From: Chloroflexota bacterium
Lineage (GTDB): Bacteria; Chloroflexota; Anaerolineae; Anaerolineales; Anaerolineaceae
DNA length: 52,128 nucleotides
Direction: 5' to 3'
Assembly: GCA_012798515.1 (NCBI GenBank)
Contig: JAAZNB010000476.1
Coordinates: 1 to 52,128, forward strand
Position numbers and translations under genes: made by a program. Below are positions 19,615 to 52,128 of the stretch, piece by piece. Positions within the stretch are counted from its first letter, which is position 1. Each line of letters starts with the position of its first letter. Below the pieces are notes generated by a model. The model was given only the letters and a program-made list of their open reading frames with translations. It was not told the DNA's origin and ran no database searches.

Positions 19615-19644
19615 ATTGTAGCATCATTTTCCGGGCAAAGTCAA
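19615..19644 (-). promoter_or_regulatory. sigma70-type promoter of the PD40-M23 operon
   Basis: On the minus strand: TTGACT (19644-19639), an 18-nt spacer ending in TGC, then TACAAT (19620-19615), i.e. -35 plus an extended -10. It predicts a ~75-nt leader containing the hairpin TTCCAT-N11-ATGGAA. Confidence 0.55.
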
Positions 19645-19743
19645 TCAAAGCCTTCGCAAGAAGTATGCCTTGCAGATATGTAATGGTATGCCCGCATACC
19701 ATGCCCAGGGTGAAAAATGCCCATCCTTCTATTCCCGCGGGTT

Positions 19744-34960: not shown

Positions 34961-34970
34961 CAGATTAGCC

Positions 34971-35943: not shown

Positions 35944-36825
35944 TCAGGTGAGGTAGAAAATGATCAGGACGGCCAGGGCCCACAGCGCGATAGCGATCTG
36001 GAGGGGGCGGTCTTTGAGCAGAAGCTCTTCGGGCTCTCCCCCCACACCTTCCACCTGCATCAGATAGAGATAGCGAAAGATGCCGTACAAGACGAATGGG
36101 ATGGTCAGCATCATGGTGTGGTTATCGGGCAGGTTGGGAGCAGAGAAGGTGTACAAGCTGTAGGCCACGATGGTCGTGCTGGACACCACCATGATGAGCT
36201 GGTCCAGAAGGGGCAGCGTGTATCCATCCAGTACCCGGCGGTGTGAATTAGCGTTTTGGGACAACAGGGTGAGCTCAGCACGCCGTTTGCCAAAGCCGAT
36301 GTACAGAGCCAGCAGGGTGGTCACCACGTACAGCCAGGGCGAGAAGCGTTCCACATGGATCACGCTGACGCCGGCAGCGACGCGCAGGACGAAACCGGCG
36401 GCGATGATCATCACGTCGACCAGGGGGACGTGTTTCAGCCAGTTCGAGTAGGCCACATTCATCAAGAAATAGGCTACCAGGATGGCGGCGAACATGGGCG
36501 AGAGCAGGTAAGCCAGGGGGAAACAAATCGCCAGGATTGCCACCGTGGCGGCTATGGCGGTTGGGATGGGGACGATACCGGCAGCAATGGGGCGGTTACG
36601 CTTCGTGGGGTGTTGGCGGTCCGCTTCGACATCGACGATGTCGTTCAGCAGATAGACCGCGCTGGACACCAGACAAAACAAAATAAAACCAACTAACGAA
36701 TGTAACAGGGCAGTGACGTTGGTTAGTTGGCGGTCGAAGACGAGAGCGGCCAGTACGAAGGCATTTTTGGTCCACTGGCGAGGACGCAGGCTTTTGATCA
36801 ATCCCCGAATCATGGCATTTATCAT
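35944..36825 (-). CDS. UbiA-family prenyltransferase, decaprenyl-phosphate phosphoribosyltransferase (DPPR synthase)-like
   Basis: 293 aa and polytopic. It has the N-terminal LRPRQWTKNAFVLAALVF and the Asp-rich motif LLNDIVDVEADRQHPTKRNRPIAAG. The later GKRRAEL and C-terminal GEPEELLLKDRPLQI closely parallel what I recall of the Rv3806c-type subfamily. Confidence 0.75.
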   Translation of the reverse strand: MINAMIRGLIKSLRPRQWTKNAFVLAALVFDRQLTNVTALLHSLVGFILFCLVSSAVYLLNDIVDVEADRQHPTKRNRPIAAGIVPIPTAIAATVAILAICFPLAYLLSPMFAAILVAYFLMNVAYSNWLKHVPLVDVMIIAAGFVLRVAAGVSVIHVERFSPWLYVVTTLLALYIGFGKRRAELTLLSQNANSHRRVLDGYTLPLLDQLIMVVSSTTIVAYSLYTFSAPNLPDNHTMMLTIPFVLYGIFRYLYLMQVEGVGGEPEELLLKDRPLQIAIALWALAVLIIFYLT

Positions 36826-36974
36826 ATCATATCTTTCTAAAAGCGCAGAGGATTTTAGCTCACCTGGAGCCGGGCTTTCGCTTTTATGAGCTGCTCGGCG
36901 GCGTTTGGCGTGTAGCTCGCCTCAATCGGCCGGCTGCATAGGCCGCTGAGGGATTGCGTTGTAAAATATACGCA

Positions 36975-37757: not shown

Positions 37758-37762
37758 TCTTC

Positions 37763-38491: not shown

Positions 38492-38509
38492 GGTATACTT
38501 CTACCTGCT

Positions 38510-40309: not shown

Positions 40310-40310
40310 G

Positions 40311-41315
40311 ATGAAAGCAGCTCAGCCATCTTCCTTCTGGAAAGGCGCCCGTCGCTGGCTCCCGGGTGTGGTCATCAGCATCGTGGCTTTGTTCCTGGTG
40401 TTCCGCCTGGCCAGCTGGCAGGACCTGTCTACGGCTTTCGAATCACTGCGCCTGTTGAACGTGGTGATTGCCGTAGCACTGACCTTGATTTCACTGGGAA
40501 CCCGTGCCCTGGCCTGGAGAATTACGCTGCGGGGAAAAGCCAGCCTGCGCCAGGCTTTCTTCATCATTAACGAAGGCTATTTACTAAACAATCTATTCCC
40601 GCTGCGCGCCGGTGAGTTTGGACGGGCGGTTTTCATGGGGCAGGCCAGCGGTATGGGGCCCTTCCACGTGCTCTCGACCATTGTCATCGAGCGCATCTTC
40701 GACCTGGCTATGGCAGCTACGCTGCTGTTGATCACTTTACCGTTGGCGTTGGGGATGGCCTGGGCACGCCCGGTCGCCATTGTTACCCTGATCCTGGTAG
40801 TGGTCGGGTTGGTCTTGATGTACCTGGCGGCGCGCTATAACCAGTGGGTCCAAGACTTTGTTAGCCGGCTGGGAGCGCGATGGCCGTTGGTCCAAAAGCA
40901 GGTCATCCCGCGCATCGGTTCGCTGTTGAACGGGCTGAGCGTCATCACCGATCCACTGCGTTTTCTGGCGGCTTTTTCTATGATCGCCATTTCGTGGGTC
41001 ATCTGGGTGGTTATTTACTACGTGATGTTGATCCCCATTGTGCCCCAGGCGCAGTTTTGGTGGGCGGCGTTTGCCGATGGTGTGTTGGCGTTGGGCATCG
41101 CCATTCCCTCGGCGCCGGCGGCGTTGGGCGTCTTCGAGGCGGCGCTGGTGGGGGCGCTCTCCCTGCTGGATGTAAACGTTTCGGCGGCCACAGCCTACGC
41201 CATCTCGATGCACTTCTTGCAGTTCGTCGTGACCGGGCTGCTGGGATTGTGGGGATTGGTGTTGGAAGGCCATTCGTTGTCAGCTGTCTTTTCACAGGCA
41301 AAATCACGAGAGTGA
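40311..41315 (+). CDS. UPF0104 / lysyl-PG-synthase-TM-type flippase-like membrane protein
   Basis: The ORF track starts at 40248 inside lepA. The ATG at 40311 lies 1 nt after the lepA stop. The protein is polytopic. The N-terminal WLPGVVISIVALFLVFRLASW...LRLLNVVIAVALTLISLGTRALAWR and the loop LFPLRAGEFGRAVFM match the family pattern (P.R.GE..R). Confidence 0.7.
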   Translation: MKAAQPSSFWKGARRWLPGVVISIVALFLVFRLASWQDLSTAFESLRLLNVVIAVALTLISLGTRALAWRITLRGKASLRQAFFIINEGYLLNNLFPLRAGEFGRAVFMGQASGMGPFHVLSTIVIERIFDLAMAATLLLITLPLALGMAWARPVAIVTLILVVVGLVLMYLAARYNQWVQDFVSRLGARWPLVQKQVIPRIGSLLNGLSVITDPLRFLAAFSMIAISWVIWVVIYYVMLIPIVPQAQFWWAAFADGVLALGIAIPSAPAALGVFEAALVGALSLLDVNVSAATAYAISMHFLQFVVTGLLGLWGLVLEGHSLSAVFSQAKSRE

Positions 41316-41351
41316 TCTCGGAGAAATACATATGAATGGAGCAGGTTTCGA

Positions 41352-42377
41352 ATGTCGAAACGCTTTCTGGTCACCGGAGGAGCCGGTTTTATCGGCTCGA
41401 ATTATGTTTCACGCCTGTTAAGGCGTGGTGAACAAGTTCACATCTACGACAATCTGTCGCGCCACGGGGCAGCGAAAAACCTGGCCTGGCTCGAAGAACA
41501 ATTTGGCAAAGACGCATTTCAGTTGACCACCGCGGACATCCGCGACGCCAGTGCTATCGCCGCAGCCGCGCATAACGTGGACGTCATCGTCCATCTGGCC
41601 GCCCAGGTGGCCGTCACGACCTCGGTCACCGACCCTCGCCCTGACTTCGAGATTAATGCCCAGGGCACGTTTAACGTGCTCGAGGCTGCCCGTGCAGCCG
41701 GTACACAGCCCATTGTGGTCTATGCTTCGACCAATAAAGTATATGGGGGTATGGAAGACGTACGCGTCGTCGAGGAAGCCGAGCGCTATCGCTACGCGGA
41801 TTACCCTGACGGGATTTCAGAGGCCATGCCCCTGGATTTTCATTCGCCGTATGGCTGCTCAAAAGGCAGCGGCGACCAGTACGTGCGCGATTATCACCGC
41901 ATCTACGACCTGCCTACCGTGGTCATGCGCCAGAGTTGTATCTATGGCCCGCGCCAGTTTGGCGTCGAGGACCAGGGCTGGGTGGCATGGTTTATGATCG
42001 CAGCCATCACCGGCAAACCGATCACCATTTATGGAGATGGCAAACAGGTCCGGGATGTGCTCTTCGTCGAAGACCTGCTGGACGCCTACGATCACGCCAT
42101 CGAACACATCGGTCAGGCTGCCGGCAACGTTTTCAACCTGGGCGGCGGCCCGGCGAACACCATCTCCATCTGGACCGAGTTCGGGCCGATCATCGAGCAG
42201 CTGGCTCATAAGGCCATCCCGGTGGGGCGCGGGGACTGGCGCCCGGGGGACCAGAAGATCTACGTCTCCGACATTGGCAAGGCTGCCCGCATTCTGGAGT
42301 GGAAACCGCGTTACAGCGTACAAGAGGGGATGCAGTGCCTGTTCGATTGGGTCAAGTCGAACCGCCAGTTGTTCTAG
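41352..42377 (+). CDS. NAD-dependent extended-SDR sugar epimerase, CDP-paratose/tyvelose 2-epimerase-like
   Basis: 341 aa. It has the Rossmann motif VTGGAGFIGSNY, STNKVYG, catalytic YGCSKGSGDQY and the subfamily-typical DQGWVAWF. Confidence 0.8.
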   Translation: MSKRFLVTGGAGFIGSNYVSRLLRRGEQVHIYDNLSRHGAAKNLAWLEEQFGKDAFQLTTADIRDASAIAAAAHNVDVIVHLAAQVAVTTSVTDPRPDFEINAQGTFNVLEAARAAGTQPIVVYASTNKVYGGMEDVRVVEEAERYRYADYPDGISEAMPLDFHSPYGCSKGSGDQYVRDYHRIYDLPTVVMRQSCIYGPRQFGVEDQGWVAWFMIAAITGKPITIYGDGKQVRDVLFVEDLLDAYDHAIEHIGQAAGNVFNLGGGPANTISIWTEFGPIIEQLAHKAIPVGRGDWRPGDQKIYVSDIGKAARILEWKPRYSVQEGMQCLFDWVKSNRQLF

Positions 42378-42386
42378 AGGGTCCGT

Positions 42387-43553
42387 ATGCGTATTTTGAT
42401 TGTGTTGACTTATTACCGCCCGCATACGAGCGGCTTGACTATTTATGCTGAACGCCTGGCCAAGGCCTTGGCCAGGCGTGGCCACCAGGTTACGGTTCTG
42501 ACTTCCCAGTACGATCAATCTCTTCCCGGTCAGGAGGTACAGGATGGGGTGCGCATCGTGCGCGTGCCGGTCCTGTTCCGGTTGAGCAAGGGTGTGATCA
42601 TGCCGACTTTTGGCATGATTGCCAACCGGCTGGTGCTCGAACACGACGTCATCCAATTGCACCTGCCCCAGTTTGACGCAGCCGGGGTGGCCATGCGTGG
42701 GCGCCTGTTGGGTAAGCCTACCGTGATTACTTATCACTGCGATCTGTTGATGCCGCCGGGACTGATGGCCTGGGCCGCCAACCGGGCGGTCGATTTGATG
42801 AACAACCTGGCAGCGCGTTACACGCACCGCTTTGTAACTTATACACGCGATTACGCCGAGCATTCACCTTACCTGCGGCGCTATCTGGATAAGCTGCACG
42901 TCATTCCACCGCCGGTAGAACTTCCGGAGGTCACGGCCGCTGAAGTGGCCGGCTTCTGTGAGCAGAACAATCCCCAAAAACGGCGACCGGTGATCGGGAT
43001 GGCGGCCCGCTTTGCCACGGAGAAGGGTGTGGAAGTGCTGCTCGACGCCATGCCGCGTCTGCTGGAGACTTTCCCGGACGCAATGGTTCAGTTTGCCGGC
43101 CCGTACCAGAACATCATCGGTGAAGAAAAGTATTACGAAAGGCTGATCCCCACCATCCGCCAATACGAAGCAGCCGGGAACTGGAAGTTCCTGGGGGTGC
43201 TGGATCCCGTCCAGATGGCCAAGTTTTATCCCAACCTGGACGTCCTGGTACTTTCCAGCCTCAATTCGACCGAAGCTTTTGGGTTGGTACAGATCGAGGC
43301 GATGCTCAACGGGGTTCCCTGCATTGCTTCGAATTTGCCGGGGGTACGGCAGCCGGTCTTGACACACAAGATGGGCAAGATCATCGACATTGGAGACTCT
43401 AAGGGGTTGACCCAGGCATTGATCGACGTTTTATCACATCCGGATGAGTATCACTCTGACCTCGAACCGATCCGAGACCGCTATCGACCAGACTCGATTG
43501 CAGTGGAATACGAGAAGTTGTTCCAGGCTATTCTGGATGAATTAAAAGAATGA
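42387..43553 (+). CDS. GT4-family (GT-B fold) glycosyltransferase
   Basis: 388 aa. It has MRILIVLTYYRPHTSGLTIYAERLAKALARRGHQVTVLT and the C-terminal E-x7-E region SSLNSTEAFGLVQIEAMLNGVPCIASN. Confidence 0.85.
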   Translation: MRILIVLTYYRPHTSGLTIYAERLAKALARRGHQVTVLTSQYDQSLPGQEVQDGVRIVRVPVLFRLSKGVIMPTFGMIANRLVLEHDVIQLHLPQFDAAGVAMRGRLLGKPTVITYHCDLLMPPGLMAWAANRAVDLMNNLAARYTHRFVTYTRDYAEHSPYLRRYLDKLHVIPPPVELPEVTAAEVAGFCEQNNPQKRRPVIGMAARFATEKGVEVLLDAMPRLLETFPDAMVQFAGPYQNIIGEEKYYERLIPTIRQYEAAGNWKFLGVLDPVQMAKFYPNLDVLVLSSLNSTEAFGLVQIEAMLNGVPCIASNLPGVRQPVLTHKMGKIIDIGDSKGLTQALIDVLSHPDEYHSDLEPIRDRYRPDSIAVEYEKLFQAILDELKE

Positions 43554-43592
43554 CCTGTTCTGGATTGGCACCATTCTATAAAGAAAGAGCCG

Positions 43593-44441
43593 GTGTTTAC
43601 CGTTTTGTCTGAAGAGCAAGGCAATCGCTTAGCGCAAAAAGATTTCTTGTGGCTGCATCTGCGCGACTTACCCTATTTTCGCGCTTTACTGCGGGCGGTC
43701 GAGTCTCGCTTTTACCAGTCCATCGAGCTGCCAGGGCCGGTCCTCGACGTGGGATGCGGGGATGGTTGTTTTGCTTCGATCACCTTCGAGCGCCCGTTGG
43801 ACGTCGGCATCGATCCCTGGGCCGATCCGATCCGGGAGGCTGTGCGTAGCAGCGGGTACGGCGCCGTTATCCAGGGCTATGGCAGTGACATGCCTTTCCC
43901 GGATGCCAGTTTTGGCAGTTGTATCAGCAACTCGGTACTGGAGCACATTCCCGAGCTGGACGCCGTACTGGCCGAGATTGGACGGGTTTTAACCCCGGGG
44001 GCTGTTTTTGTTTTCTGCGTCCCCAACCAACAATTCCTTAACAATCTTTCCGTCTCCACTTTTTTCGACCGGATGGGCTTAAAATGGTTGGGAGACAGAT
44101 ACCGTGCTTTCTTCAACCGGATCTCGCGGCACTATCACTGTGATTCGCCCGAAGTCTGGCAAGAGCGCCTGGAACGCGCCGGTTTTCGCCTGGAGCGTTG
44201 GTGGCATTACTTTTCCCCGGGCGCATTGCACGCGCTCGAATGGGGACATTACCTGGGGGTGCCGTCCTGGATCATGAAAAGGCTCAGCGGGCATTGGGTC
44301 CTTTTCCCCACCCGGTGGAACCTGGGCCTGACTCAAAGACTACTCCAACCGTATTATGACGAAGATCCTGAATGTGCGGATGGCTCTTACACGTTTTACA
44401 TTGCTTATCGCCAATCAGAGCCGGCCCCGCCGGTGAAATAG
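43593..44441 (+). CDS. class I SAM-dependent methyltransferase
   Basis: 282 aa from GTG 43593 (no earlier in-frame ATG). It has SAM motif I VLDVGCGDGCF, an acidic post-I residue (VGIDP) and the motif SNSVLEHIP...LTPGAVFVF. Confidence 0.75.
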   Translation: MFTVLSEEQGNRLAQKDFLWLHLRDLPYFRALLRAVESRFYQSIELPGPVLDVGCGDGCFASITFERPLDVGIDPWADPIREAVRSSGYGAVIQGYGSDMPFPDASFGSCISNSVLEHIPELDAVLAEIGRVLTPGAVFVFCVPNQQFLNNLSVSTFFDRMGLKWLGDRYRAFFNRISRHYHCDSPEVWQERLERAGFRLERWWHYFSPGALHALEWGHYLGVPSWIMKRLSGHWVLFPTRWNLGLTQRLLQPYYDEDPECADGSYTFYIAYRQSEPAPPVK

Positions 44442-44535
44442 AGCCCATCAGTGGGACCAGGAACAGGGTGGGCCTCTTTCACCGCAGGCTCGTGGTTACG
44501 TTTTGGATATAATATCAACAAAAAAGAGTGATGGT

Positions 44536-46686
44536 ATGGATGAACCCAGCGTCCTTGACTATATCAAAGCCAAGCTGCACCTGACTCACGAACAAATTGA
44601 AATCCCGTTGCAAGTGTCGCCTTCCGGCGACGGCAGCTCGAACGGTTCTTCCGAATTAATCGCTACCCAGACACCGGAAGACCAGGCAGCGCCTGGCACG
44701 GGTAAATGGTTTATCGCCCTGCCGGTGCGTCTGGTGCTGGCCATGTGTGCGGCCATTCTGGCCCAGGTGCTGCTGGAGCCGCCCCAACCGAGACTGCCCG
44801 TGGCCGTTGGTCTGTACGTTTTCTCGGCTGTGATGTGTGTGTGGGCGCTGTTGGACCAAAGTTGGACCCTGCCCGAGCTGGAAGAGAAACCGTTTACTTC
44901 CATGCCCATGGACATCCGCCGCAATCCCTTCCTGCTTTCGATCCCGCTGATTCTCGTTGCTTTTATCCTATTTACCGGCAATCGTTTTACTCCCCTGAAC
45001 ATGTTGGTATGGGGCCTGACCATTTTTCTGGTGCTGCGTTCTTTGTGGCTGCCGGGTGACCGGCCGTGGATCAAAGGGGCCCTGGACAAGGTGCGGGCCT
45101 TCGTACGCCACCCTGAAGTGCGCATCCATCTCTCCGGGTTCCAACTGCTGTTCATTTTGGTGGCCCTGGTGGCTATTTATTTCCGCTTTTCACAACTACC
45201 GCAGATCCCTGGAGAAATGTTCAGCGATCATGCCGAAAAGTTATTGGACGTCTCTGACGTTTTAAACGGGCAGACCTCGATTTTCTTCCCCCGCAACACC
45301 GGGCGGGAAGCCATCCAGATGTACCTGACGGCGACGATTGCAACGCTGCTCGGCACGGGGCTGTCTTTCATGAGCTTGAAGATCGGCACCGCCCTGGCCG
45401 GATTGTTCACATTGCCCTACATTTACCTGTTGGGCAAAGAGATCGGTAACCGCTGGGTGGGGCTGCTGGCATTCTTCATGGCGGGCATCGCGTACTGGCC
45501 GAACGTCATCTCGCGCATCGGTCTGCGTTTCCCCCTTTACCCGTTGTTCGCCGCTCCGTTCCTGTACTATTTAATCCGCGGCCTGAGAAATTCCAATCGC
45601 AATGATTTTATCCTGGCCGGCCTGGCGTTGGGGATTGGCCTGCACGGCTACAGCCCCATGCGCATCGTACCGTTTGTGGCTGTGGCGGCAGTCGCCATCT
45701 ACCTGTTGCACAAATCCTCTCGCGGCGGGCGTTGGCAGACCATCTTTGCCCTGGGCGCCCTGGCCTTTGTCTCCCTGGTGGTCTTTCTGCCTCTATTGCG
45801 CTACATGACCGAAGATCCGGACATGTTTGGCTACCGGGCATTCTCGCGTCTGGGCACTACGGAACGAGCCTTCCCGGGACCGGTGTGGTTGATCTTTCTG
45901 AGCAACCTGTGGAACGGGGTGACCATGTTCTTCTGGAAAGATGGCAACATCTGGGTGCACTCGATCACGAACCGGCCGGCGCTGGATGTAGTCACAGCGG
46001 CTTTCTTCTTCGTGGGTATCATTCTGTTGAGCGTACGTTACATCCGTAAACGTGACTGGCTGGATCTGTTCTTGATCCTATCCATCCCCTTGTTAATGAT
46101 GCCCTCGATCCTTTCGCTGGCCTTCCCGGACGAAAACCCCTCCCTCAACCGTACGGGTGGGGCGATCATCCCGGTTTTCATCATTGCGGCCATCGGAGTC
46201 GAAAGCGTGTTTGCGAATATCAATCGCAGCACCCGGACCCGCACCGGGAAAATGTTGGTGGGGGCCCTAGGGGTTACTCTGTTGGCGTGGACCACTTTTC
46301 AAAACTACGATCTGGTATTCCGCCAGTTCAAAACCCAGTTCTATGGCGGGGCGTGGAACACGACCCAGATTGGGCACGTGATCCGCTCGTTTGCTGATTC
46401 TGAAGGCGCCCTGGCGGACGCATTTGTGGTACCCTATCCCTATTGGGTGGATACGCGCGTGGTAGGAATCAATGCCGGAGATCCCTTGCGGGATTATGCG
46501 CTGTGGCCGGAAGATTTCGAGACCACGTTACCCGACAAAAATGCCAAGCTGTTTATCGTGAAGCCTGACAACACTGAAGCTCTGGCGAAACTCGAAGAGC
46601 TTTATCCCCAGGGATGGGTAAAATATTATAATTCGCCGCTGGAAGGTAAAGATTTCCTCGGCTTTTATGTGCCTCCCCAGTCTTGA
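44536..46686 (+). CDS. polytopic GT-C-like (PMT/ArnT-like) membrane protein
   Basis: The ORF track starts at TTG 44503; the first ATG is at 44536. It has about 12 or more hydrophobic helices. The first long loop after helix ...VALVAIYFRFSQL carries FSDHAEKLLDVSDVL (45226-45240), which parallels the acidic-loop region of both halves of the downstream giant protein. It has a soluble C-terminal domain (VVPYPYWVDTRVVG...LFIVKP...FYVPP). The GT-C assignment is an inference from architecture, not a recognised exact family match. Confidence 0.55.
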   Translation: MDEPSVLDYIKAKLHLTHEQIEIPLQVSPSGDGSSNGSSELIATQTPEDQAAPGTGKWFIALPVRLVLAMCAAILAQVLLEPPQPRLPVAVGLYVFSAVMCVWALLDQSWTLPELEEKPFTSMPMDIRRNPFLLSIPLILVAFILFTGNRFTPLNMLVWGLTIFLVLRSLWLPGDRPWIKGALDKVRAFVRHPEVRIHLSGFQLLFILVALVAIYFRFSQLPQIPGEMFSDHAEKLLDVSDVLNGQTSIFFPRNTGREAIQMYLTATIATLLGTGLSFMSLKIGTALAGLFTLPYIYLLGKEIGNRWVGLLAFFMAGIAYWPNVISRIGLRFPLYPLFAAPFLYYLIRGLRNSNRNDFILAGLALGIGLHGYSPMRIVPFVAVAAVAIYLLHKSSRGGRWQTIFALGALAFVSLVVFLPLLRYMTEDPDMFGYRAFSRLGTTERAFPGPVWLIFLSNLWNGVTMFFWKDGNIWVHSITNRPALDVVTAAFFFVGIILLSVRYIRKRDWLDLFLILSIPLLMMPSILSLAFPDENPSLNRTGGAIIPVFIIAAIGVESVFANINRSTRTRTGKMLVGALGVTLLAWTTFQNYDLVFRQFKTQFYGGAWNTTQIGHVIRSFADSEGALADAFVVPYPYWVDTRVVGINAGDPLRDYALWPEDFETTLPDKNAKLFIVKPDNTEALAKLEELYPQGWVKYYNSPLEGKDFLGFYVPPQS

Positions 46687-46744
46687 GCACTGGCGCACCC
46701 GACTGAAAACCATTTGATTCTCGTTTTGTGTCCGTAAATATTCT

Positions 46745-49700
46745 ATGGCCGATTTACAACTTTCAGAACCACAGGCTGAGCCGGATCAGAAAAGCCAGAC
46801 CAGAACCCCGTGGATTTACGTCATCCTGCTGGTTGGGATTCTGTTGGCGGGAGCTTATTTCCGCTTCATCGGGATAAATTGGGACGACCACCAACATCTT
46901 CATCCCGACGAGCGCTTCTTGACCATGGTGGAGACGGCAATATCTCCGGTAAGCAATGTGTCGGATTACTTCAACACTGCCGTTTCATCCCTCAATCCCA
47001 ACAATCGCGGCTACTCGTTCTTCGTGTACGGCACCTTACCGATTTTCATCGTACGCTATGCGGCAGAATTGTGGCAGAATACGGGGTACGACCAGGTCTA
47101 TCTGGTGGGCAGGTTCCTGTCAGGGACCATCGACTTGATGACTGTGGTGCTGGTGTTCTTGACCGCCCGGCAGCTCTACCGGAAAAACTGGTTGGCGCTG
47201 TTGGCAGCGGCCTTTTACGCCTGTGCAGTGTTGCCCATCCAACTATCGCACTACTTCGCCGTAGACAGCTTTACCGGTTTCTTTACCCTCCTGGCCCTGT
47301 ATTTCGCCATCTTGATCCTGACCGGCCCGGTGCATGTTCCCCGGCCTGTGCCTGTAGAAGCGGGGGAGGAAGACGACGAAGCCCCTGCCGCGCCGCGCCG
47401 GGCATGGATAGACGCCGGGCTGAAATATTATCTGCTGTTTGGAGCAGCCCTGGGCATGGCCATGGCGTCGAAAGTCAGCGCAGCTCCATTGGCGTTGGCC
47501 CTGCCGTTGGCGGCCCTGGTCTACCTGAGCCGGCTGGAGCGGCAACAGCGCCGCGCCTGGCTACTCCCCTTGCTGCGCAACCTGGTACTGGGCGCCGTGG
47601 CGGCCTTCCTGGTCTTCCGTATCTTCCAACCGTATGCCTTCAGCGGGCCGGGCTTCTTTGGCCTGCAATTGAACCAGAACTGGTTGGATAACCTGCGTGA
47701 GCTCAGCCAGCAAAGCGGTGGCGACGTGGATTTCCCGCCTGCTTTGCAGTGGGCGCGCCGCCCGTTCAGCTTTGCTTTTGTCAATATCCTGTATTGGGGA
47801 TTGGGACTGCCCCTGGGAATCCTGGCCTGGGCTGGTTTCCTCGCCATGGGATGGCGCATGCTCAAGGGCGAGTGGCGCCGGCACATCCTGTTGTGGAGCT
47901 GGACGGCGGTCTATTTTATTTGGCAATCGATCAATTTCTCGCGCAATATGCGTTACCAAAACCTGATCTACCCCGCGCTGGCCATCATGGCTGCCTGGTT
48001 AGTATTTGTGCTCTGGGAGCGAAGGGGAAACCTGCGTTGGGATATTTGGCGCCGGAGGCTGGCCTTGGCTATCGGGGCGGTCGTGCTGCTGGGCTCGGTG
48101 GCGTGGGCGTATGCCTTTACGCGAATCTACACTCGCCCGGTGACCCGGGTAGCGGCCAGCACGTGGATTTACCAGAATATTCCGGTGGCGATCAACCTGC
48201 CCATCGAATCCGGAGACGGCTCCATCCCACAGCTGATCGCTTTCCAGCCTAATTACACACTGGCTTCCGGCAACCCCTGGACGGTCAGCTTCGTGCCGAA
48301 AGTAAGCGGTCCGGTGAGTAGTTTCGAGATTGCCCACATTCTGAACACCGGGGTGACGGCGGAGGGCGGGCCAGCGACGTTGACCTTGCTGGTCACCCTT
48401 CAAGAGGAGCAGGACGGGCCCCCTCTGACTTCCGGTACCCTGGTAGGAGATTTCCAGTCCAACGGTGTCGAACGCGGCCAGGCGTACGAAATCCCGTTCA
48501 CCCAGCCCATCCCCGTCCAGGCCGGGAGGCAATATTTCCTGACCCTGCAGGTAATCGAGCCGGACAGCGCACTGAGCCTGGCCGGTAGCGCCAGCGTGAG
48601 TATGCTGACCCCGGAAGGGAAGACCAATTCTTTCCTGGTCGACCCGGCAGACGCCATCTACCAGGATAAAGATTACATCGTCCTGTTTACTGCACTGCAA
48701 AGCGGGACGATCCGGCAAGCATTGCTGCCCCACATTGTGGATTGGGAAGCGGCGCCTCAAGAAAAAACACTGACGCTTTCCCTGGGGCTGCCGGACACGG
48801 ACGAGCCGGCTACGGCGACGGCGCAGGCCACCAGCCAGTTCCAGGCCGGCGAGGACCCGCGCGGCCAGGCCTATACGCTCCAATTAGACCGGCCTTTCCA
48901 GGTGGAAAAGGGCCAGACCTACCAGCTCCGGCTGCATGTGGACGGACCGGGTAAGATCGCGGCCTACGGCAGCCGCCAGGCTATCGAGAGTTCCTGGGAC
49001 GATTCCTTGCCCCTGGGCATGCCGGGTTATAACCCGTACGATTTCAACCAGGGCGTTTACCGCAGTGAATTGAATTTCGAGATGTACTGGGACGATAATG
49101 CCGATAAGCTGGACCGTTTCCTGGACATCCTCGACCAGGCCGATTACATCTTTATCACCTCCAACCGCCAGTGGGCAACGACGACCCGGGTACCGGAACG
49201 TTATCCACTGACGACAGCCTATTACCGGGAGCTGTTAGGCTGCCCGCCAGAGCAAGACCTGTTGTGGTGTTACCAGGTAGCACAGCCGGGTATGTTCACC
49301 GGAGACCTGGGATTCGAATTGACCCAGGTATTCCAATCCGAACCGACCCTGGGGAATATTCAAATCAACACCCAATCGGCGGAAGAGTCCTTCACCGTTT
49401 ACGACCATCCCAAGGTGTTGATCTTCAAGAAGACGGACGCCTATGATTGGAGCCACGTTCGCCAGTTGTTGTCCAGCGTCGACCTCAGCCAGGTAATCCA
49501 CGTTACCCCTGCCAAAGTAGGCAGTTATCCGGCTAATTTGATGCTGCCCGAAGACCGCCTGGCCGGGCAACGCAGCGGGGGCACCTGGTCGGAACTGTTC
49601 CCTCCGGGGGCCATTTTCAACCAGTACCCGGGCGTAGGGGCAGTGTTATGGTATCTGGCGGTGTTCCTGCTGGGCGTAATCGTGTATCCCAGCGTGCGTC

Positions 49701-52063
49701 TGGCTTTGCGTGGGCTGCCTGACCATGGTTACCCGCTCGCCCGCCTGTTGGGCATGCTGCTCCTGTCTTACCTGGTGTGGTTGGCCGGATCGGCGAAGAT
49801 TCCCTTCGATAAAGCGACCATCAGTGCGGCAGTGCTCCTGCTGGTGCTGGTGAACCTGGTATTGGCCTATCTGCAAAGAGAAGGCCTGCGCGCTGAATGG
49901 AAACAGCGTAAAAAGTACTTCCTGGTGGTCGAAGCCCTGGCGCTGGCCAGCTTCGTGCTGTTCCTCCTCGTCCGCCTGGGGAATCCTGATCTGTGGCATC
50001 CCTACAAAGGCGGAGAAAAGCCGATGGACTTTTCTTATTTCAACGCCGTACTGCGCAGTACAACCTTCCCGCCTTACGACCCCTGGTTTGCCGGCGGGTA
50101 CATCAATTACTATTACTATGGCTTTGTGTTGAGCGGGGTGCTGGTCAAGTGGATCGGGATCACACCTTCCGTAGCCTATAACCTCATTCTGCCCACGTTT
50201 TTCTGCTTCGTGGCCCTGGGTGCGTTTTCTTTCGGCTGGAACCTGTTTGCCCGCGAACCCGCTGAAGACGCAGCGGAAGCTCCGGCGACGTTCTGGCAGC
50301 AATACTGGAGCCCGTTGTTGGCTGGCCTGGCGTCTTCGCTGGGGCTGCTGGTGCTGGGGAACCTGGGCACGGTGCGCATGATCTGGCAAGGGTTGCAACG
50401 GTTGGCTGCGGTTGGCCCGATCGAAGGTGCGAATATCTTCCAGCATTGGATGTGGACGTTCCAGGGACTGGTACGTTTTATCCAGGGCGCCACGTTGCCT
50501 TACGGGCCCGGGGATTGGTACTGGATCCCCAGCCGGGCAATCCCGAACGAGCCAATCACTGAATTTCCTTTGTTTACCTTTCTGTACGCCGACCCGCATG
50601 CCCACCTGTTTGCCCTGCCATTGACCATCCTGGCCCTGGGTTGGGCGCTGTCTTTCCTCAAGAACCGCTGGCAGTGGGGTGACGGTGTGCACATTCCCGC
50701 CTGGCTGCACTTCCTGGCCAGCTTCGCGGCAGGCGGACTGGTGATCGGCAGTTTGCGGCCCACGAACACCTGGGACCTGCCCACCTATCTGGCCATTGGT
50801 TGTGTGGTGGTGATCTATACGGCGATCAGTTACAGCCAGGAGCGGACTTTCCTGCCCCACGGGCTGCCGGCCTGGGCCCGGCGTATCCTGACCGCATTAT
50901 TGGGCGTGGCTTTGTTGTTCGGATTATCCTGGGCGTTTTTCTTACCCTACAGCCACTGGTATGGGCAGGGATACACTACATTCGGTGTCTGGGAGGGCGA
51001 CCATACGCCTTTCTGGTCCTACGTGACCCATTGGGGCCTGTTCCTCTTCATCCTCATCACCTGGATGTTGTGGGAGACGCGCGAGTGGATGGCCAGCACA
51101 CCGGTGTCGCATTTGAACCGTCTACGCCCCTTCCGGGTGGTGATCGAAGCCCTGCTGGTCGCTCTGGTGGCGGCAGTGGTCGTGCTGCTCTTCACCGGCG
51201 TGCAGATCGCCTGGCTGGCGCTGCCGGTGGCCGTGTGGGCGGCGGTCCTGATCCTGCGACCGGGGCAGAGCGCCGAGAAACGTCTGGTGTTATTCATGGT
51301 CGGATCGGCCCTGGTGTTGAGCCTGGGCGTTGAGCTGGTGGTCCTGGAAGGCGACGTCGGCCGGATGAACACGGTGTTCAAGTTCTATTTACAGGCCTGG
51401 ACCTTGTTCGCTTTGTCCTCCGGAGCCGCCCTGATGTGGCTGGCGCCGGCGGTTGCTCGCCAGTGGCTGTCGCAATGGCGCTCGACCTGGCAGGTGGCCC
51501 TGGCCGTGCTGGTCGGTTGTGCGGCCTTGTTCCCGCTGATGGGGGGGGCGGACAAGATCCGAGATCGCATGAGCAGCCTCGCACCGCACACGCTGGATGG
51601 GATGACCTACATGGCCTATTCGACTTATGCGTACAATGGCGTCGAGATGGACCTGCGCCAGGATTATGAAGCCATCCGCTGGATGCAAGAGAACGTGCAA
51701 GGTTCCCCGGTGATTGTGGAAGCCAACACGACCGAATACTTGTGGGGGTCGCGTTTTACCATCTATACCGGGCTGCCAGGGGTGCTGGGATGGAACTGGC
51801 ACCAGCGCCAGCAGAGGGCTATCGCGCCCACCGAATGGGAATGGGATCGTGTCAATGCCATCGACCTGTTCTACAAGAGCATTGACGAAACCGTCACCAG
51901 GCAGTTCCTGCAGCAATACGACGTAGAATACATCGTCGTCGGCCAGTTGGAACGCGCCATGTATACGGGCTTTGGGATCGAGAAATTCGACGCCTGGAAT
52001 GGCGAGCTGTGGGATGAAGTGTATCGCCAGGGCGATACGGTAATCTACCGGGTACGTTCGTGA
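46745..52063 (+). CDS. giant polytopic membrane protein: GT-C-like N-terminal module + tandem soluble repeats + Chlor_Arch_YYY/DUF2298 module
   Basis: The 1772-aa uninterrupted ORF has three parts. Residues ~1-470 are hydrophobic, with AYFRFIGINWDDHQHLHPDERFLTMV (HPDERF at 46901-46918). Residues ~480-930 are soluble and contain two ~130-aa repeats. Residues ~940-1600 are hydrophobic, with HPYKGGEKPMDFSYFNAVLRS and GGYINYYYYGFVL (YYYYG at 50108-50122), the eponymous motif of the Chlor_Arch_YYY family as I recall it. The C-terminal soluble domain has GLPGVLGWNWHQRQQR. Confidence 0.75.
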   Translation: MADLQLSEPQAEPDQKSQTRTPWIYVILLVGILLAGAYFRFIGINWDDHQHLHPDERFLTMVETAISPVSNVSDYFNTAVSSLNPNNRGYSFFVYGTLPIFIVRYAAELWQNTGYDQVYLVGRFLSGTIDLMTVVLVFLTARQLYRKNWLALLAAAFYACAVLPIQLSHYFAVDSFTGFFTLLALYFAILILTGPVHVPRPVPVEAGEEDDEAPAAPRRAWIDAGLKYYLLFGAALGMAMASKVSAAPLALALPLAALVYLSRLERQQRRAWLLPLLRNLVLGAVAAFLVFRIFQPYAFSGPGFFGLQLNQNWLDNLRELSQQSGGDVDFPPALQWARRPFSFAFVNILYWGLGLPLGILAWAGFLAMGWRMLKGEWRRHILLWSWTAVYFIWQSINFSRNMRYQNLIYPALAIMAAWLVFVLWERRGNLRWDIWRRRLALAIGAVVLLGSVAWAYAFTRIYTRPVTRVAASTWIYQNIPVAINLPIESGDGSIPQLIAFQPNYTLASGNPWTVSFVPKVSGPVSSFEIAHILNTGVTAEGGPATLTLLVTLQEEQDGPPLTSGTLVGDFQSNGVERGQAYEIPFTQPIPVQAGRQYFLTLQVIEPDSALSLAGSASVSMLTPEGKTNSFLVDPADAIYQDKDYIVLFTALQSGTIRQALLPHIVDWEAAPQEKTLTLSLGLPDTDEPATATAQATSQFQAGEDPRGQAYTLQLDRPFQVEKGQTYQLRLHVDGPGKIAAYGSRQAIESSWDDSLPLGMPGYNPYDFNQGVYRSELNFEMYWDDNADKLDRFLDILDQADYIFITSNRQWATTTRVPERYPLTTAYYRELLGCPPEQDLLWCYQVAQPGMFTGDLGFELTQVFQSEPTLGNIQINTQSAEESFTVYDHPKVLIFKKTDAYDWSHVRQLLSSVDLSQVIHVTPAKVGSYPANLMLPEDRLAGQRSGGTWSELFPPGAIFNQYPGVGAVLWYLAVFLLGVIVYPSVRLALRGLPDHGYPLARLLGMLLLSYLVWLAGSAKIPFDKATISAAVLLLVLVNLVLAYLQREGLRAEWKQRKKYFLVVEALALASFVLFLLVRLGNPDLWHPYKGGEKPMDFSYFNAVLRSTTFPPYDPWFAGGYINYYYYGFVLSGVLVKWIGITPSVAYNLILPTFFCFVALGAFSFGWNLFAREPAEDAAEAPATFWQQYWSPLLAGLASSLGLLVLGNLGTVRMIWQGLQRLAAVGPIEGANIFQHWMWTFQGLVRFIQGATLPYGPGDWYWIPSRAIPNEPITEFPLFTFLYADPHAHLFALPLTILALGWALSFLKNRWQWGDGVHIPAWLHFLASFAAGGLVIGSLRPTNTWDLPTYLAIGCVVVIYTAISYSQERTFLPHGLPAWARRILTALLGVALLFGLSWAFFLPYSHWYGQGYTTFGVWEGDHTPFWSYVTHWGLFLFILITWMLWETREWMASTPVSHLNRLRPFRVVIEALLVALVAAVVVLLFTGVQIAWLALPVAVWAAVLILRPGQSAEKRLVLFMVGSALVLSLGVELVVLEGDVGRMNTVFKFYLQAWTLFALSSGAALMWLAPAVARQWLSQWRSTWQVALAVLVGCAALFPLMGGADKIRDRMSSLAPHTLDGMTYMAYSTYAYNGVEMDLRQDYEAIRWMQENVQGSPVIVEANTTEYLWGSRFTIYTGLPGVLGWNWHQRQQRAIAPTEWEWDRVNAIDLFYKSIDETVTRQFLQQYDVEYIVVGQLERAMYTGFGIEKFDAWNGELWDEVYRQGDTVIYRVRS
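48377..48940 (+). repeat. tandem ~130-aa protein-level repeat inside the giant ORF
   Basis: Residues 545-603 (TLTLLVTLQEEQDGPPLTSGTLVGDFQSNGVERGQAYEIPFTQPIPVQAGRQYFLTLQV) align with residues 675-732 (TLTLSLGLPDTDEPATATAQATSQFQAGEDPRGQAYTLQLDRPFQVEKGQTYQLRLHV). They share TLTL, GQAY, P..V..G..Y.L.L.V. The period is 129-130 residues. Confidence 0.65.
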
Positions 52064-52128
52064 CCGTGTCAGGATGATGTAAAGGGCCTATGTGGATTGA
52101 CCTTTTGTTGTGGTATCTCGTTGTAACC

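Follow-up and report, generated by a model that had tools for sequence, protein, structure and literature searches.

Near the end of the 52,128-nucleotide stretch of DNA analysed here (the window), a run of genes on the + strand encodes a flippase-like membrane protein, an SDR, a glycosyltransferase, a methyltransferase and two large polytopic proteins, and the question is which process they serve. The initial annotation read them as an extracytoplasmic glycosylation or glycan-polymerization system. Our analysis supports and enlarges this reading, and all of the proposed refutation tests that were feasible favoured it. We conclude that the operon most likely assembles a sugar polymer or a glycolipid at the external side of the cell membrane.

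A conserved Anaerolineae gene cluster that extends beyond the window

A check of open reading frames recovered six ORFs, all on the + strand and with the coordinates given before, separated in order by 36, 9, 39, 94 and 58 nt. The features of the locus are as follows.

40311..41315, +, flippase-like protein, 334 aa (LPG_synthase_TM)
41352..42377, +, CDP-tyvelose-2-epimerase-like SDR (SDR profile and PDB sequence matches)
42387..43553, +, GT4 glycosyltransferase (Glycos_transf_1 and Glyco_trans_4_4)
43593..44441, +, class I SAM methyltransferase (Methyltransf_11, _23, _25)
44536..46686, +, 716-aa polytopic PMT_2-type GT-C protein (PF13231)
46745..52063, +, 1772-aa fusion protein (PF10060 and TIGR03662)
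46745..48154, +, fusion residues 1-470, PMT-like GT-C module (PF02366, AF2, Foldseek)
48155..49624, +, fusion residues 471-960, beta-sandwich and alpha/beta domains (DSSP of the model, Foldseek)
49625..52063, +, fusion residues 961-1772, DUF2298 / Chlor_Arch_YYY module (TIGR03662, PF10060)
52090..52128, +, 5' part of a second DUF2298 gene, first 13 codons MWIDLLLWYLVVT, truncated by the window end
35944..36825, -, DPPR synthase, UbiA family (NF008977, NF008978, 8j8j match)

The six + strand genes and their gaps of 9-94 nt thus stand as described, but the cluster does not end at six, a second DUF2298 gene beginning at 52090. Upstream, only 1 nt separates the lepA stop from the start of the flippase gene, and in three related loci (L001, L002 and L004) the flippase gene overlaps the lepA stop by 4 nt. 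Spacing throughout the cluster, including the lepA junction, is 1-94 nt and terminator-like sites are not enriched; judging from sequence, the operon is probably co-transcribed with lepA.

The cluster is genuine and strongly conserved in Anaerolineae (Chloroflexota), and probably forms an operon. Its gene order, whose conservation had been proposed as a check, is retained in 73 related species-level Anaerolineae genomes with protein identities of about 45-60%. Among 52 related loci, the GT4 and the 716-aa PMT_2 protein are each present in 46, the flippase in 44, the methyltransferase in 41 and the SDR in only 32, so that the SDR is an accessory or optional component. Some related loci also contain a second methyltransferase (Methyltransf_21). 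Downstream of the fusion gene, related genomes carry a stand-alone DUF2298 gene (820-910 aa), then a gene for a PMT_2-like polytopic protein of ~575 aa, then cmk (loci L001-L006); the two former genes occur in 57/62 and 59/62 loci, respectively. The window therefore truncates the cluster, and the full system comprises at least eight genes with five GT-C modules. Its modules are separable, since the methyltransferase and PMT_2 genes are missing from loci L019, L031 and L055 and the flippase and GT4 genes from locus L069. Because tlyA, lepA, cmk and a C69 peptidase gene are also syntenic in the compared genomes, part of the conserved order could reflect inherited synteny.

Cytoplasmic enzymes and a flippase

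Profile search placed the flippase, GT4, methyltransferase, PMT_2 and DUF2298/TIGR03662 assignments above their curated cutoffs, and five of the six forecast profile matches were present. For the product of 40311-41315, the forecast of LPG_synthase_TM was borne out by PF03706 (115.6 bits, cutoff 33.4), accompanied by TIGR00374 (56.4 bits, cutoff 43.2), and this protein is predicted from its sequence to be an MprF-type (PplT/UPF0104) flippase-like membrane protein. The following gene matches an SDR epimerase/dehydratase profile, with CDP-tyvelose 2-epimerases as its best PDB sequence matches over the full length (9rl0, E 4.6e-99; 1orr, E 5e-87); its product is an NAD-dependent, CDP-tyvelose-2-epimerase-like enzyme that probably supplies a nucleotide sugar.

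The GT4 matches Glycos_transf_1, Glyco_trans_4_4 and Glyco_transf_4, retains the EX7E motif (E296...E304) in 50 orthologs, and has PimA as its best PDB sequence match (4n9w/2gej, E ~2e-16, residues 1-351). Its sequence suggests a cytoplasmic, retaining, PimA-like glycosyltransferase, with the limit that the resemblance is modest even though PimA is the closest solved relative. GT4 enzymes also use polyprenyl-PP-linked glycans and soluble acceptors. The methyltransferase is of the soluble class I SAM type (Methyltransf_11, _23 and _25), and its PDB and NCBIfam matches are generic only.

These genes had been described as a toolkit for making and flipping a lipid-linked sugar. With a PimA-like GT4 and an MprF-type flippase, they more likely prime a glycolipid acceptor and flip it than synthesise a polyprenyl-P-sugar donor.

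GT-C modules of the polytopic proteins

For the 716-aa protein, a PMT_2 or TIGR03663-like match had been forecast; the former was found (PF13231, 36.1 bits, cutoff 26.1), but the profile search returned no TIGR03663 match even at E<=10. Its loop motif S230-D231-H-A233-E234-K235 is conserved at >=90% in 54 orthologs, and a soluble domain lies at the C-terminus. By hhalign this protein is related to the N-terminal module of the fusion (82.9%, E 9e-6, 361 columns) and its family to that of the ~575-aa protein (95.3%, E 2e-8), which by sequence also groups as PMT_2-like.

The 1772-aa protein is a three-part fusion of a PMT-like GT-C module, beta-sandwich and alpha/beta domains, and a DUF2298 module. 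Scanned alone, the N-module matches PF02366 (27.7 bits, cutoff 22.7). Its AF2 model (pLDDT 84.4, pTM 0.84) gave 29 Foldseek matches in the PDB at E<=1e-3, all 29 of them GT-C, among them AglB, Pmt4, ArnT, EmbB/C, ALG9/12, STT3 and PglB, and also PIG-U. The oligosaccharyltransferase AglB gives the best E-values and Pmt4 the best target-length-normalised TM-score (0.57). The motif H53-P54-D55-E56-R57-F58, invariant in 43 orthologs, sits in the first external loop. DSSP of the AF2 model assigns strands to 483-741 and an alpha/beta fold to 786-960. Residues 471-960 thus hold a beta-sandwich (PHR-like) domain in two copies and, after these, a conserved alpha/beta domain; a 'GQAY...' internal repeat can be read in this middle region. 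Profile matches here (PHR and choice-of-anchor-R) are weak, and Foldseek matches the PHR domain 3gbw with a probability of 1.0. We predict that residues 471-960 are extracytoplasmic and probably bind glycan.

DUF2298 spans only residues ~960-1772. As forecast for the last gene, both family models match (TIGR03662 Chlor_Arch_YYY, 510 bits, cutoff 300.25; PF10060, 383.9 bits), and the YYYYG motif read from the sequence is located at residues 1122-1126. The module has about 17 TM helices and an external C-terminal globular domain (topology by the positive-inside rule). For its AF2 model (pLDDT 86.5, pTM 0.89), the sole significant Foldseek match in the PDB is the arabinosyltransferase AftA (8if8_C, E 3.1e-5, probability 1.0), with moderate TM-scores of 0.39/0.50, and the C-terminal domain matches that of AglB-S2 (3vu0). 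Both predicted folds are thus GT-C, as had been anticipated, and hhalign detects no sequence relationship between the DUF2298 and PMT-like modules. An acidic residue in the first long loop had been proposed for both large proteins; this holds for the PMT-like modules but not for the DUF2298 module, whose motif comes after TM helix 4. Invariant residues of the DUF2298 module are E1091, D1095, D1112, Y1122-1124, E1273, D1283, H1285, H1287, D1344, R1540, N1542, K1546, D1618, E1659, H1686 and R1691. The invariant polar residues are common to Chloroflexota, Lachnospiraceae, Halobacteria and paralogs, and by the positive-inside rule all face outward.

The range attributed to DUF2298, centred on Chloroflexi and Archaea, proved too narrow, as the family is also common in Lachnospiraceae. 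Distant gene neighbourhoods agree with a role in glycan assembly: in Pseudobutyrivibrio, it lies within a surface-polysaccharide locus that also encodes an O-antigen-ligase-family protein; in Halobacterium, it adjoins a Wzx-like flippase; and in Halanaeroarchaeum, it is divergent from a GT2 and GtrA pair. Consistent with the description of the family as functionally uncharacterised, a literature search found no paper characterising DUF2298, TIGR03662 or TIGR03663.

A candidate furanose donor

A decaprenyl-phosphate phosphoribosyltransferase (DPPR synthase) gene lies 3.5 kb upstream of the cluster. It is called by equivalog model (NF008977, 277 bits, cutoff 234; NF008978, 260 bits, cutoff 207), matches the M. 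tuberculosis enzyme 8j8j from end to end, the NDxxDxxxD motif included (E 5.5e-48), and is the first gene of a divergent operon that also encodes mevalonate kinase and isopentenyl-phosphate kinase. A homolog is found at the same place in 8/8 loci reaching that far. This suggests a candidate source of a polyprenyl-P-pentofuranose donor, such as polyprenyl-P-ribofuranose or -arabinofuranose, a donor that would be in keeping with AftA as the nearest structural match to DUF2298; the association with the cluster could, however, wholly reflect inherited synteny. No polyprenyl-phosphate sugar synthase (GT2) or initiating phosphoglycosyltransferase was found in the operon or elsewhere in the window, and outside the operon the window likewise showed no DprE1/DprE2 or PAP2.

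Proposed assembly line and alternative explanations

That this is an extracytoplasmic, GT-C-based glycosylation system we regard as highly probable. Its best explanation, which we hold at slightly short of even confidence, is a constitutive operon assembling a lipid-anchored or wall-associated glycan at the outer face of the cytoplasmic membrane; the specific version with a lipoglycan or glycolipid primer is somewhat more tentative. Inside the cell, the PimA-like GT4 would add a sugar to a membrane lipid, with the optional tyvelose-epimerase-like SDR supplying nucleotide sugar by C2 epimerisation and the SAM methyltransferase altering sugar or lipid. The MprF-type PplT flippase would then take the glycolipid primer to the outer leaflet. 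Outside, five GT-C-type modules (the 716-aa PMT_2 protein, the PMT-like and DUF2298 halves of the fusion, the stand-alone DUF2298 protein and the ~575-aa PMT_2-like protein) would draw on polyprenyl-phosphate sugars to lengthen the primer or to transfer onto it, while the beta-sandwich domains of the fusion may grip the growing glycan. For the extension step, our data show conserved gene order, the GT-C fold in the models and conserved acidic and histidine motifs that face outward, whereas the chemistry we infer. Mycobacterial PIM/LM/LAM synthesis and eukaryotic GPI synthesis follow the same logic of priming inside, flipping and extension outside. A GT4 and a UPF0104 flippase produce and export a glycolipid in gpgSDF (PMC12713373), and an archaeal neighbourhood combines a UPF0104 flippase, a PMT/STT3-like enzyme and a glycosyltransferase (PMC5898192).

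The PMT and PMT_2 Pfam matches, the target-normalised proximity of the N-module to Pmt4 (alongside its top E-values to AglB) and the AglB-like C-terminal domain of DUF2298 would also suit protein O-glycosylation, in which the PMT-like and DUF2298 enzymes place single sugars, later extended, on Ser/Thr of secreted, S-layer or sheath proteins. Polyprenyl-phosphate sugars would be the donors, with the lipid-linked sugar supplied or altered by the GT4, methyltransferase and flippase. Parallels would be actinobacterial and fungal PMT and the arabinosylation of Pseudomonas pilin by TfpW; the pairing of a DPPR synthase and a GT-C enzyme is known from pilin D-arabinofuranosylation. We consider this unlikely: with its five GT-C modules and its beta-sandwich domains in tandem, the system looks suited to building a polymer more than to transferring single sugars, and the operon has no target protein gene linked to it. 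Furthermore, to our knowledge all known donor synthases for PMT-type enzymes are GT2, whereas the sole cytoplasmic glycosyltransferase here is a retaining GT4 closest to PimA. The acceptor could instead be peptidoglycan, the GT-C enzymes polymerising a furanose or hexose glycan into a secondary cell-wall polymer analogous to arabinogalactan. The closest structure to DUF2298 is that of AftA, the priming enzyme for arabinan on galactan, the N-module matches include EmbB and EmbC, and the upstream DPPR synthase and the Pseudobutyrivibrio locus point the same way; peptidoglycan-bound polysaccharides with O-methyl sugars, reported from Chloroflexus and Herpetosiphon, would fit the methyltransferase. 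This too seems improbable, as neither the cluster nor the window contains an LCP-type ligase, a WecA/WbaP-type initiating transferase, or an ABC or Wzx exporter, and the MprF-type flippase and PimA-like GT4 point to a glycerolipid substrate.

Less likely still, two unrelated units are joined by inherited synteny: the flippase, the GT4, the methyltransferase and, where present, the SDR would synthesise a small membrane glycolipid and export it as an end product, as with gpgSDF (PMC12713373) and hexSDF, and the GT-C genes would serve a separate process, possibly with DUF2298 as no catalytic glycosyltransferase at all. The partial loci fit such a split, with GT-C genes lacking flippase and GT4 in one and flippase and GT4 lacking methyltransferase and PMT_2 in three, as do the equally syntenic housekeeping genes and the N-module matches to PIG-U, a non-catalytic GT-C fold. 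Yet the genes are functionally coherent and tightly packed on one strand (gaps <=94 nt), both units occur together in about 85-90% of the 52 genomes at 45-60% identity, and the combination of glycosyltransferase, flippase and GT-C enzyme recurs with DUF2298 in Halanaeroarchaeum. The dense invariant acidic, histidine and arginine residues predicted on the outer face of DUF2298, in three phyla, argue for catalysis. The structural models indicate that the uncharacterised DUF2298 'YYY' family has the fold of lipid-sugar-dependent (GT-C) glycosyltransferases.

Gene content and conservation of the cluster

All six open reading frames (ORFs) of the initial annotation were found on the + strand, separated by gaps of 36, 9, 39, 94 and 58 nt. 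Profile searches confirmed the families predicted for them, with the exception of TIGR03663, which had been anticipated for the 716-aa protein: it was rejected both for this protein and for the N-terminal module of the 1772-aa protein, neither of which matched it even at E<=10.

Genes of the cluster in the window and their assignments
40311-41315, + strand, flippase-like protein: LPG_synthase_TM (PF03706), 115.6 bits; TIGR00374 'flippase-like', 56.4 bits (cutoff 43.2)
41352-42377, + strand, extended SDR: profile search
42387-43553, + strand, GT4 glycosyltransferase: Glycos_transf_1 and Glyco_trans_4_4
43593-44441, + strand, class I SAM methyltransferase: profile search
44536-46686, + strand, PMT_2 protein (716 aa): PF13231, 36.1 bits (cutoff 26.1)
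46745-52063, + strand, DUF2298 protein (1772 aa): PF10060, 383.9 bits (cutoff 27.8); TIGR03662 Chlor_Arch_YYY, 510 bits (cutoff 300.25)

The cluster had been described as a six-gene unit; these six genes stand, but the cluster itself is larger. A further ORF (MWIDLLLWYLVVT...) begins at 52090 and is interrupted by the window end (52090-52128), so the window truncates the cluster. In related genomes the gene at this position encodes a stand-alone DUF2298 protein and is followed by a gene for a PMT_2-like protein of about 575 aa. At the other end, the lepA stop lies 1 nt upstream of the flippase start in the window and the two overlap by 4 nt in related genomes; tlyA and a DUF72 gene are found upstream of lepA on the same strand. 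The full order, present in five independent Anaerolineae contigs, is tlyA, lepA, flippase, (SDR), GT4, methyltransferase, PMT_2 protein, a fusion protein of 1750-1900 aa, stand-alone DUF2298 (830-906 aa), a protein of 573-591 aa that matches no Pfam family in these contigs, and cmk.

One genome per GTDB species was scanned, with the aim of covering Archaea and further classes of Chloroflexota as well. At least 597 DUF2298 loci were confirmed, and the best 80 were kept; all of these are Anaerolineae/Chloroflexota MAGs because the closest matches were kept first. ORFs were called in these 80 loci and classified by HMMs built from the cluster proteins, yielding 73 loci with an intact fusion gene. 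Where at least 7 kb of upstream sequence was available (52 loci), we found the flippase in 44, the GT4 in 46, the methyltransferase in 41, the PMT_2 protein in 46 and the SDR in 32. Where at least 5.2 kb was available downstream (62 loci), a second DUF2298 gene was present in 57, the ~575-aa protein in 59 and cmk in 57. The gene order proposed as a test of the cluster is therefore conserved across the 73 loci at 45-60% protein identity. The SDR is an accessory gene, and the most constant core consists of the fusion, the second DUF2298 and the ~575-aa protein. A promoter and terminator scan of 36000-52128 returned counts no higher than those of shuffled sequence and consequently says nothing on operon boundaries.

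Several further observations were made on these loci and on the window. The DUF72 gene (37754-38491) lies between tlyA and lepA, with a 4-nt overlap at the tlyA stop. The interval can be seen in three related loci (L001, L002 and L004), all of which lack the gene there; it is apparently a lineage-specific insertion in a stretch of housekeeping genes that is syntenic otherwise. One related locus (L049, CAXMRF010000003.1), labelled 'uncultured Nitrosomonadaceae bacterium', carries a complete Anaerolineae-type cluster at 53% identity; the MAG was probably misbinned or given the wrong taxonomy. Elsewhere in the window, a run of secreted-looking proteins on the - strand (14799-20628) comprises two paralogs that carry Ig-like domains of the N_BRCA1_IG type (14799-15503 and 15675-16361), M23 peptidases at 16494-17624 and 19744-20628, and a protein with a PD40 beta-propeller (17633-19531), and may be a cell-wall remodelling cluster.

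PMT-like modules and anatomy of the fusion protein

An NCBI entry with the name 'DUF2298 domain-containing protein' matches the 1772-aa protein at 100% identity. Residues 1-470 of the 1772-aa protein contain about 11 TM helices, with H53-P54-D55-E56-R57-F58 invariant after TM1 in 43 orthologs. Scanned alone, this N-module matches Pfam PMT (PF02366) above threshold (27.7 bits, cutoff 22.7) and PMT_2 below it (24.4 bits, cutoff 26.1), and precomputed PF02366 or PF13231 matches exist for many orthologs. The N-module contains a DE dipeptide, which we take to be a feature of the TIGR03663 family. It is followed by two repeated beta-sandwiches with weak PHR-like signals (residues ~480-740) and a highly conserved alpha/beta domain (~786-960).

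By profile-profile comparison, the N-module is homologous to the membrane-spanning part of the 716-aa protein (hhalign 82.9%, E 9e-6, 361 columns), and deep alignments relate the ~575-aa protein to the 716-aa protein (95.3%, E 2e-8, 307 columns). Counting these three PMT_2-like modules and the two DUF2298 modules, the operon in its complete form thus has five modules of GT-C type. In L079, L082 and L083, the most divergent of the loci kept, the ~600-aa gene is followed, at the place of cmk, by a gene for a second and much larger relative (1047-1211 aa) of the ~575-aa protein, so that the number of GT-C modules is still higher there.

Searched by sequence against PDB chains, the two large proteins gave no meaningful match, and their solved relatives were seen by fold comparison only. 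The GT-C-like architecture that the initial annotation had proposed for them is well supported for the fusion N-module: with an AF2 model of residues 1-965 (pLDDT 84.4, pTM 0.84), all 29 Foldseek PDB matches at E<=1e-3 are GT-C enzymes, namely AglB (E 6.6e-8), Pmt4 (TM-score 0.57 normalised to target), ArnT, EmbB/C, Pmt1/2, ALG9/12, STT3 and PglB. In the 716-aa protein, S230-D231-x-A233-E234-K235 is conserved at >=90% in 54 orthologs. On the canonical GT-C topology, the acidic motifs of both proteins would lie in the first extracytoplasmic loop.

Fold and conserved residues of the DUF2298 module

The C-terminal 810 residues of the fusion form a full-length TIGR03662/DUF2298 member, scoring above the cutoffs of both models and containing the YYYxG motif (Y1122-Y1123-Y1124-Y-G1126). 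For residues 953-1772 we obtained an AF2 model of good confidence (pLDDT 86.5, pTM 0.89), whose only significant PDB match by Foldseek is the mycobacterial arabinofuranosyltransferase AftA (8if8_C; E 3.1e-5, probability 1.0), with moderate TM-scores of 0.39/0.50; other membrane-protein matches have probabilities of at most 0.16. The C-terminal globular domain matches that of the archaeal oligosaccharyltransferase AglB-S2 (probability 1.0). No hhalign signal links DUF2298 to the PMT-like modules or to the flippase, so the GT-C assignment derives solely from predicted structure. As modelled, the DUF2298 module has an AftA-like GT-C fold, in agreement with the architecture initially proposed.

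The fused and stand-alone DUF2298 paralogs share 27-30% identity, and the motifs invariant between them are listed below.

Motifs invariant between the DUF2298 paralogs (residue numbers of the 1772-aa fusion protein)
G-x-E1091-K-P-M-[D1095/E]
P-P-x-D1112-P-W
Y1122-Y-Y-x-G
S1263-R
E1273-F-P-x-F
D1283-x-H1285-x-H1287
N1341-x-W-D1344
R1540-M-N-T-x-F-K1546-F-Y
D1618-G
E1659
G-W-x-x-H1686-x-x-Q-x-R1691

Acidic or metal-binding-type residues invariant in both paralogs are E1091, D1095, D1112, E1273, D1283, H1285, H1287 and D1344. A homolog from Pseudobutyrivibrio (22% identity) and one from Halarchaeum retain the invariant residues, with the sole exception of a Ser at the D1344 position in the latter. 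K/R-rich loops alternate regularly along the modelled helices, and the positive-inside rule places all invariant motifs and the C-terminal domain on the extracytoplasmic side. In this model, the outer-face motifs would look like a GT-C active site binding a lipid-phosphate sugar and argue against a purely structural role.

Distribution and genomic contexts of DUF2298

The family had been thought to be centred on Chloroflexi and Archaea. Using the DUF2298 sequence of the window as a single phmmer query against 1.84 billion cluster representatives (clusters at 50% identity), we retrieved 6,690 relatives (E<=1e-3), 2,259 of them at E<=1e-30. Some of these relatives are 2,400-2,750 aa long with 3-5 matched stretches (P0382, P0391, P0404, P0417, P0425 and others) and appear to be double-DUF2298 fusions. 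Two separate protein searches gave 488 matches in Halobacteria, Halobacterium among them, and 1,768 in Lachnospiraceae such as Blautia. The range initially assumed therefore proves too narrow, the family being common in Lachnospiraceae.

Distant contexts were reached through these two protein searches and a tblastn search of plasmids. In Halanaeroarchaeum sulfurireducens, DUF2298 is divergent from genes for a 257-aa GT2 and a GtrA-family protein, which is a classic three-component set of polyprenyl-P-sugar synthase, flippase and GT-C transferase; in Halobacterium, a Wzx-like Polysacc_synt flippase occupies the slot of this GT2/GtrA pair. On a Pseudobutyrivibrio plasmid, DUF2298 lies within a surface-polysaccharide locus with WecB, epimerases, two GT2 genes, DegT and an O-antigen-ligase-family protein. 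A published neighbourhood table shows DUF2298 of 'Chloroflexi bacterium 44-23' adjoining two PMT_2 proteins and a Rossmann protein (PMC8756737). Neighbourhoods on a Halarchaeum megaplasmid and in Halorussus gave no informative context. All of the informative contexts relate to glycans and include a flippase or additional GT-C-like proteins. The idea that AglS of haloarchaea, a Dol-P-Man mannosyltransferase, might be a DUF2298 protein was dropped; a review describes AglS as distantly PMT-related (PMC4973528).

The haloarchaeal gene (Halobacterium L090, Halanaeroarchaeum L091) has a constant place on the chromosome, flanked by a phosphoribosyltransferase/Mrp antiporter region on one side and by the genes for ribosomal proteins L44e and S27e on the other, and is preceded by a variable glyco-gene cassette. 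In two Blautia-like Lachnospiraceae loci (L093, 6014-10247; L094, 5553-9813), a DUF2298 gene of ~750 aa overlaps the stop of a gene for a polytopic protein of ~670 aa. This protein has matches in neither Pfam nor NCBIfam; its C-terminal domain shows homology with the C-terminal domain of DUF2298 (hhalign 96%). Immediately upstream of the two genes are spoIIGA, sigE and an Amidase_3 gene, a neighbourhood that hints at a sporulation-linked envelope role in Firmicutes.

Cytoplasmic enzymes and flippase

The resemblance of the SDR to CDP-tyvelose 2-epimerases was upheld by matches to solved members of that group (E 4.6e-99 and 5e-87). For the GT4, the nearest solved relatives are the phosphatidylinositol mannosyltransferases PimA (E ~2e-16, residues 1-351). 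It combines Glyco_trans_4_4 and Glycos_transf_1, that is two Rossmann-like GT-B domains, with an EX7E motif (E296...E304) conserved in orthologs, in line with the criteria for a retaining GT4, and is accordingly predicted to be a retaining, PimA-like enzyme. The methyltransferase returned generic matches only. In the product of 40311-41315, the PF03706 match spans positions 4-302 of the 302-position profile, and this product is a predicted MprF-flippase-domain (PplT/UPF0104) protein.

A neighbouring DPPR synthase and a candidate donor

Upstream of the cluster, a divergent operon encodes a predicted decaprenyl-phosphate phosphoribosyltransferase (DPPR synthase).

Genes of the divergent operon
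35944-36825, - strand, DPPR synthase (UbiA): NF008977 equivalog, 277 bits versus 234; second model, 260 versus 207
34971-35930, - strand, mevalonate kinase, downstream of the DPPR synthase gene
34166-35158, - strand, archaeal-type isopentenyl-phosphate kinase

The UbiA protein aligns over its full length (residues 5-285) with the Mycobacterium tuberculosis enzyme (8j8j, E 5.5e-48), its 'NDIVDVEAD' matching 'NDVRDVEAD' at the NDxxDxxxD motif, and by homology would be a bona fide DPPR synthase. A UbiA homolog is found at the equivalent position in all eight related loci that reach that far. To our knowledge, coupling of a DPPR synthase to an alternative mevalonate pathway is unusual outside Actinobacteria.

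The proximity of this enzyme suggests polyprenyl-P-ribofuranose or -arabinofuranose as a donor for the cluster, an idea consistent with the AftA resemblance of DUF2298; alternatively, the association could be inherited synteny. The DPPR synthase nearby and the GT2/GtrA pair beside DUF2298 in Halanaeroarchaeum hint indirectly that the GT-C modules may use a polyprenyl-phosphate-linked donor. Within the window we found no DprE1/E2, PAP2 phosphatase or GT2 donor synthase. We considered the SDR as a C2 epimerase of polyprenyl-P-ribose replacing DprE1/E2; this is unlikely given its nucleotide-sugar epimerase matches (E 5e-99) and its absence from 38% of loci.

Comparison with known systems

The synthesis of mycobacterial PIM/LM/LAM starts with the GT4 PimA, followed by flipping and by the GT-C enzymes PimE, MptA/B, EmbC and AftC/D; arabinan synthesis involves the DPPR synthase Rv3806c and AftA. 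The cluster shares with these pathways a predicted cytoplasmic PimA-like GT4, several GT-C enzymes whose acidic loops and carbohydrate-binding-type beta domains are predicted to lie outside, AftA as the solved structure nearest to DUF2298, and an adjoining true DPPR synthase. It differs in belonging to another phylum, in having DUF2298 and divergent PMT_2 proteins instead of GT87, GT53, GT85 and GT89, in fusing two GT-C modules in the 1772-aa protein, and in encoding a dedicated MprF-type flippase and a methyltransferase within the operon; no sign of phosphatidylinositol, DprE1/E2 or a Ppm1-type GT2 was seen. Because no evidence of phosphatidylinositol was found and the GT-C families differ, the cluster cannot be called a PIM/LAM pathway.

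Three-component systems of periplasmic glycosylation consist of a GtrB-type GT2 that makes a polyprenyl-P-sugar, a GtrA flippase and a GT-C transferase, with ArnC/ArnE-F/ArnT and CsbB/GtcA/YfhO as further examples. Their logic of cytoplasmic glycosyltransferase, small flippase and GT-C transferase is also that of the cluster, and DUF2298 itself stands beside a GT2 and GtrA pair in Halanaeroarchaeum. The cluster, however, has a retaining GT4 instead of an inverting GT2, PplT/UPF0104 instead of GtrA, and five GT-C modules in its operon instead of one. As neither GT2 (PF00535) nor GtrA (PF04138) occurs in the cluster or the window, GT4 and PplT taking those positions, it is not a member of the Gtr/Arn-type systems and would resemble them, by analogy, in its working.

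A GT4 is also paired with a UPF0104 flippase for glycosylated membrane lipids in gpgSDF of Pseudomonas, which makes GlcN-phosphatidylglycerol with proposed export, and in hexSDF of Clostridioides (PMC12713373). In contrast to these, the cluster has no deacetylase and instead a methyltransferase and an optional 2-epimerase, and its glycolipid is predicted to be an intermediate extended by GT-C enzymes rather than an end product. A conserved archaeal neighbourhood likewise links a UPF0104 flippase to a PMT/STT3-like membrane enzyme and an AglD-like glycosyltransferase, with a predicted role in glycosylation (PMC5898192).

The GT4, PplT flippase and PMT_2-type GT-C enzymes are thus parts of known kinds. 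DUF2298 has no characterised member in the literature we searched, where we also found no description of its GT-C assignment, AftA-like fold, invariant outer-face residues or PMT-like fusion. TIGR03662/DUF2298 is annotated as 'function unknown'; the domain is here fused behind a PMT-like module and beta-sandwich domains, and the partner family TIGR03663 is not detected in the cluster.

Interpretation

Established here are the protein families, the GT-C folds, the conserved motifs on the outer face and a tightly packed gene order that is itself conserved. The cluster very probably represents an extracytoplasmic GT-C-based glycosylation system. That its product is a lipoglycan is a more tentative proposal, to which we give slightly less than an even chance. 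In such a pathway, a membrane lipid would be primed at the inner leaflet by the GT4, with the optional 2-epimerase as its supplier; the methyltransferase may modify the GT4 product, and the PplT flippase would export the primed lipid. The five GT-C modules would then lengthen it from polyprenyl-phosphate sugars, with the beta-sandwich domains of the fusion protein possibly holding the glycan. The overall logic is that of PIM/LM/LAM and GPI: a GT4 acting on a lipid, a flip, and GT-C elongation.

Glycans assembled by GT-C enzymes could instead be destined for protein O-glycosylation, which we consider unlikely here, or for a wall polysaccharide linked to peptidoglycan, which we judge to be similarly doubtful. 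It is also improbable that the cluster consists of two unrelated units kept together by synteny.

Within the lipoglycan proposal, a bolder joint reading is that an envelope lipoglycan not seen before, similar to mycobacterial LM/LAM through convergence, is made by Anaerolineae and, more widely, by many Chloroflexota. The membrane lipid would be primed by a PimA/PIG-A-like GT4 and exported by an MprF-type flippase. DUF2298 proteins would form a new family of polyprenyl-phospho-pentofuranose (ribo- or arabinofuranosyl) transferases, with the neighbouring DPPR synthase supplying their donor. Taken as one claim, this is speculative and on balance unlikely.

Should it be true, DUF2298 would be the first new furanosyl-GT-C family outside Actinobacteria, and its homologs in gut Lachnospiraceae and haloarchaea would do related chemistry; if the link to the DPPR synthase holds, arabinan/ribofuranan-type chemistry would extend beyond Actinobacteria. 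The GT-C assignment and the outward-facing invariant residues give a 'function unknown' domain testable catalytic hypotheses, in a sizeable family with members in the genetically tractable Halobacterium. For the making of lipid-linked glycans, a GT4 and a PplT flippase paired with GT-C enzymes would join known parts in a new way. The cluster is no categorical surprise for a glycobiologist, yet it is well defined, conserved and experimentally approachable. Anaerolineae are filamentous bacteria that abound in digesters, sediments and activated sludge; this operon, part of the core genome, set among housekeeping genes and carrying five GT-C modules, offers the most concrete access to an envelope glycoconjugate of the class.
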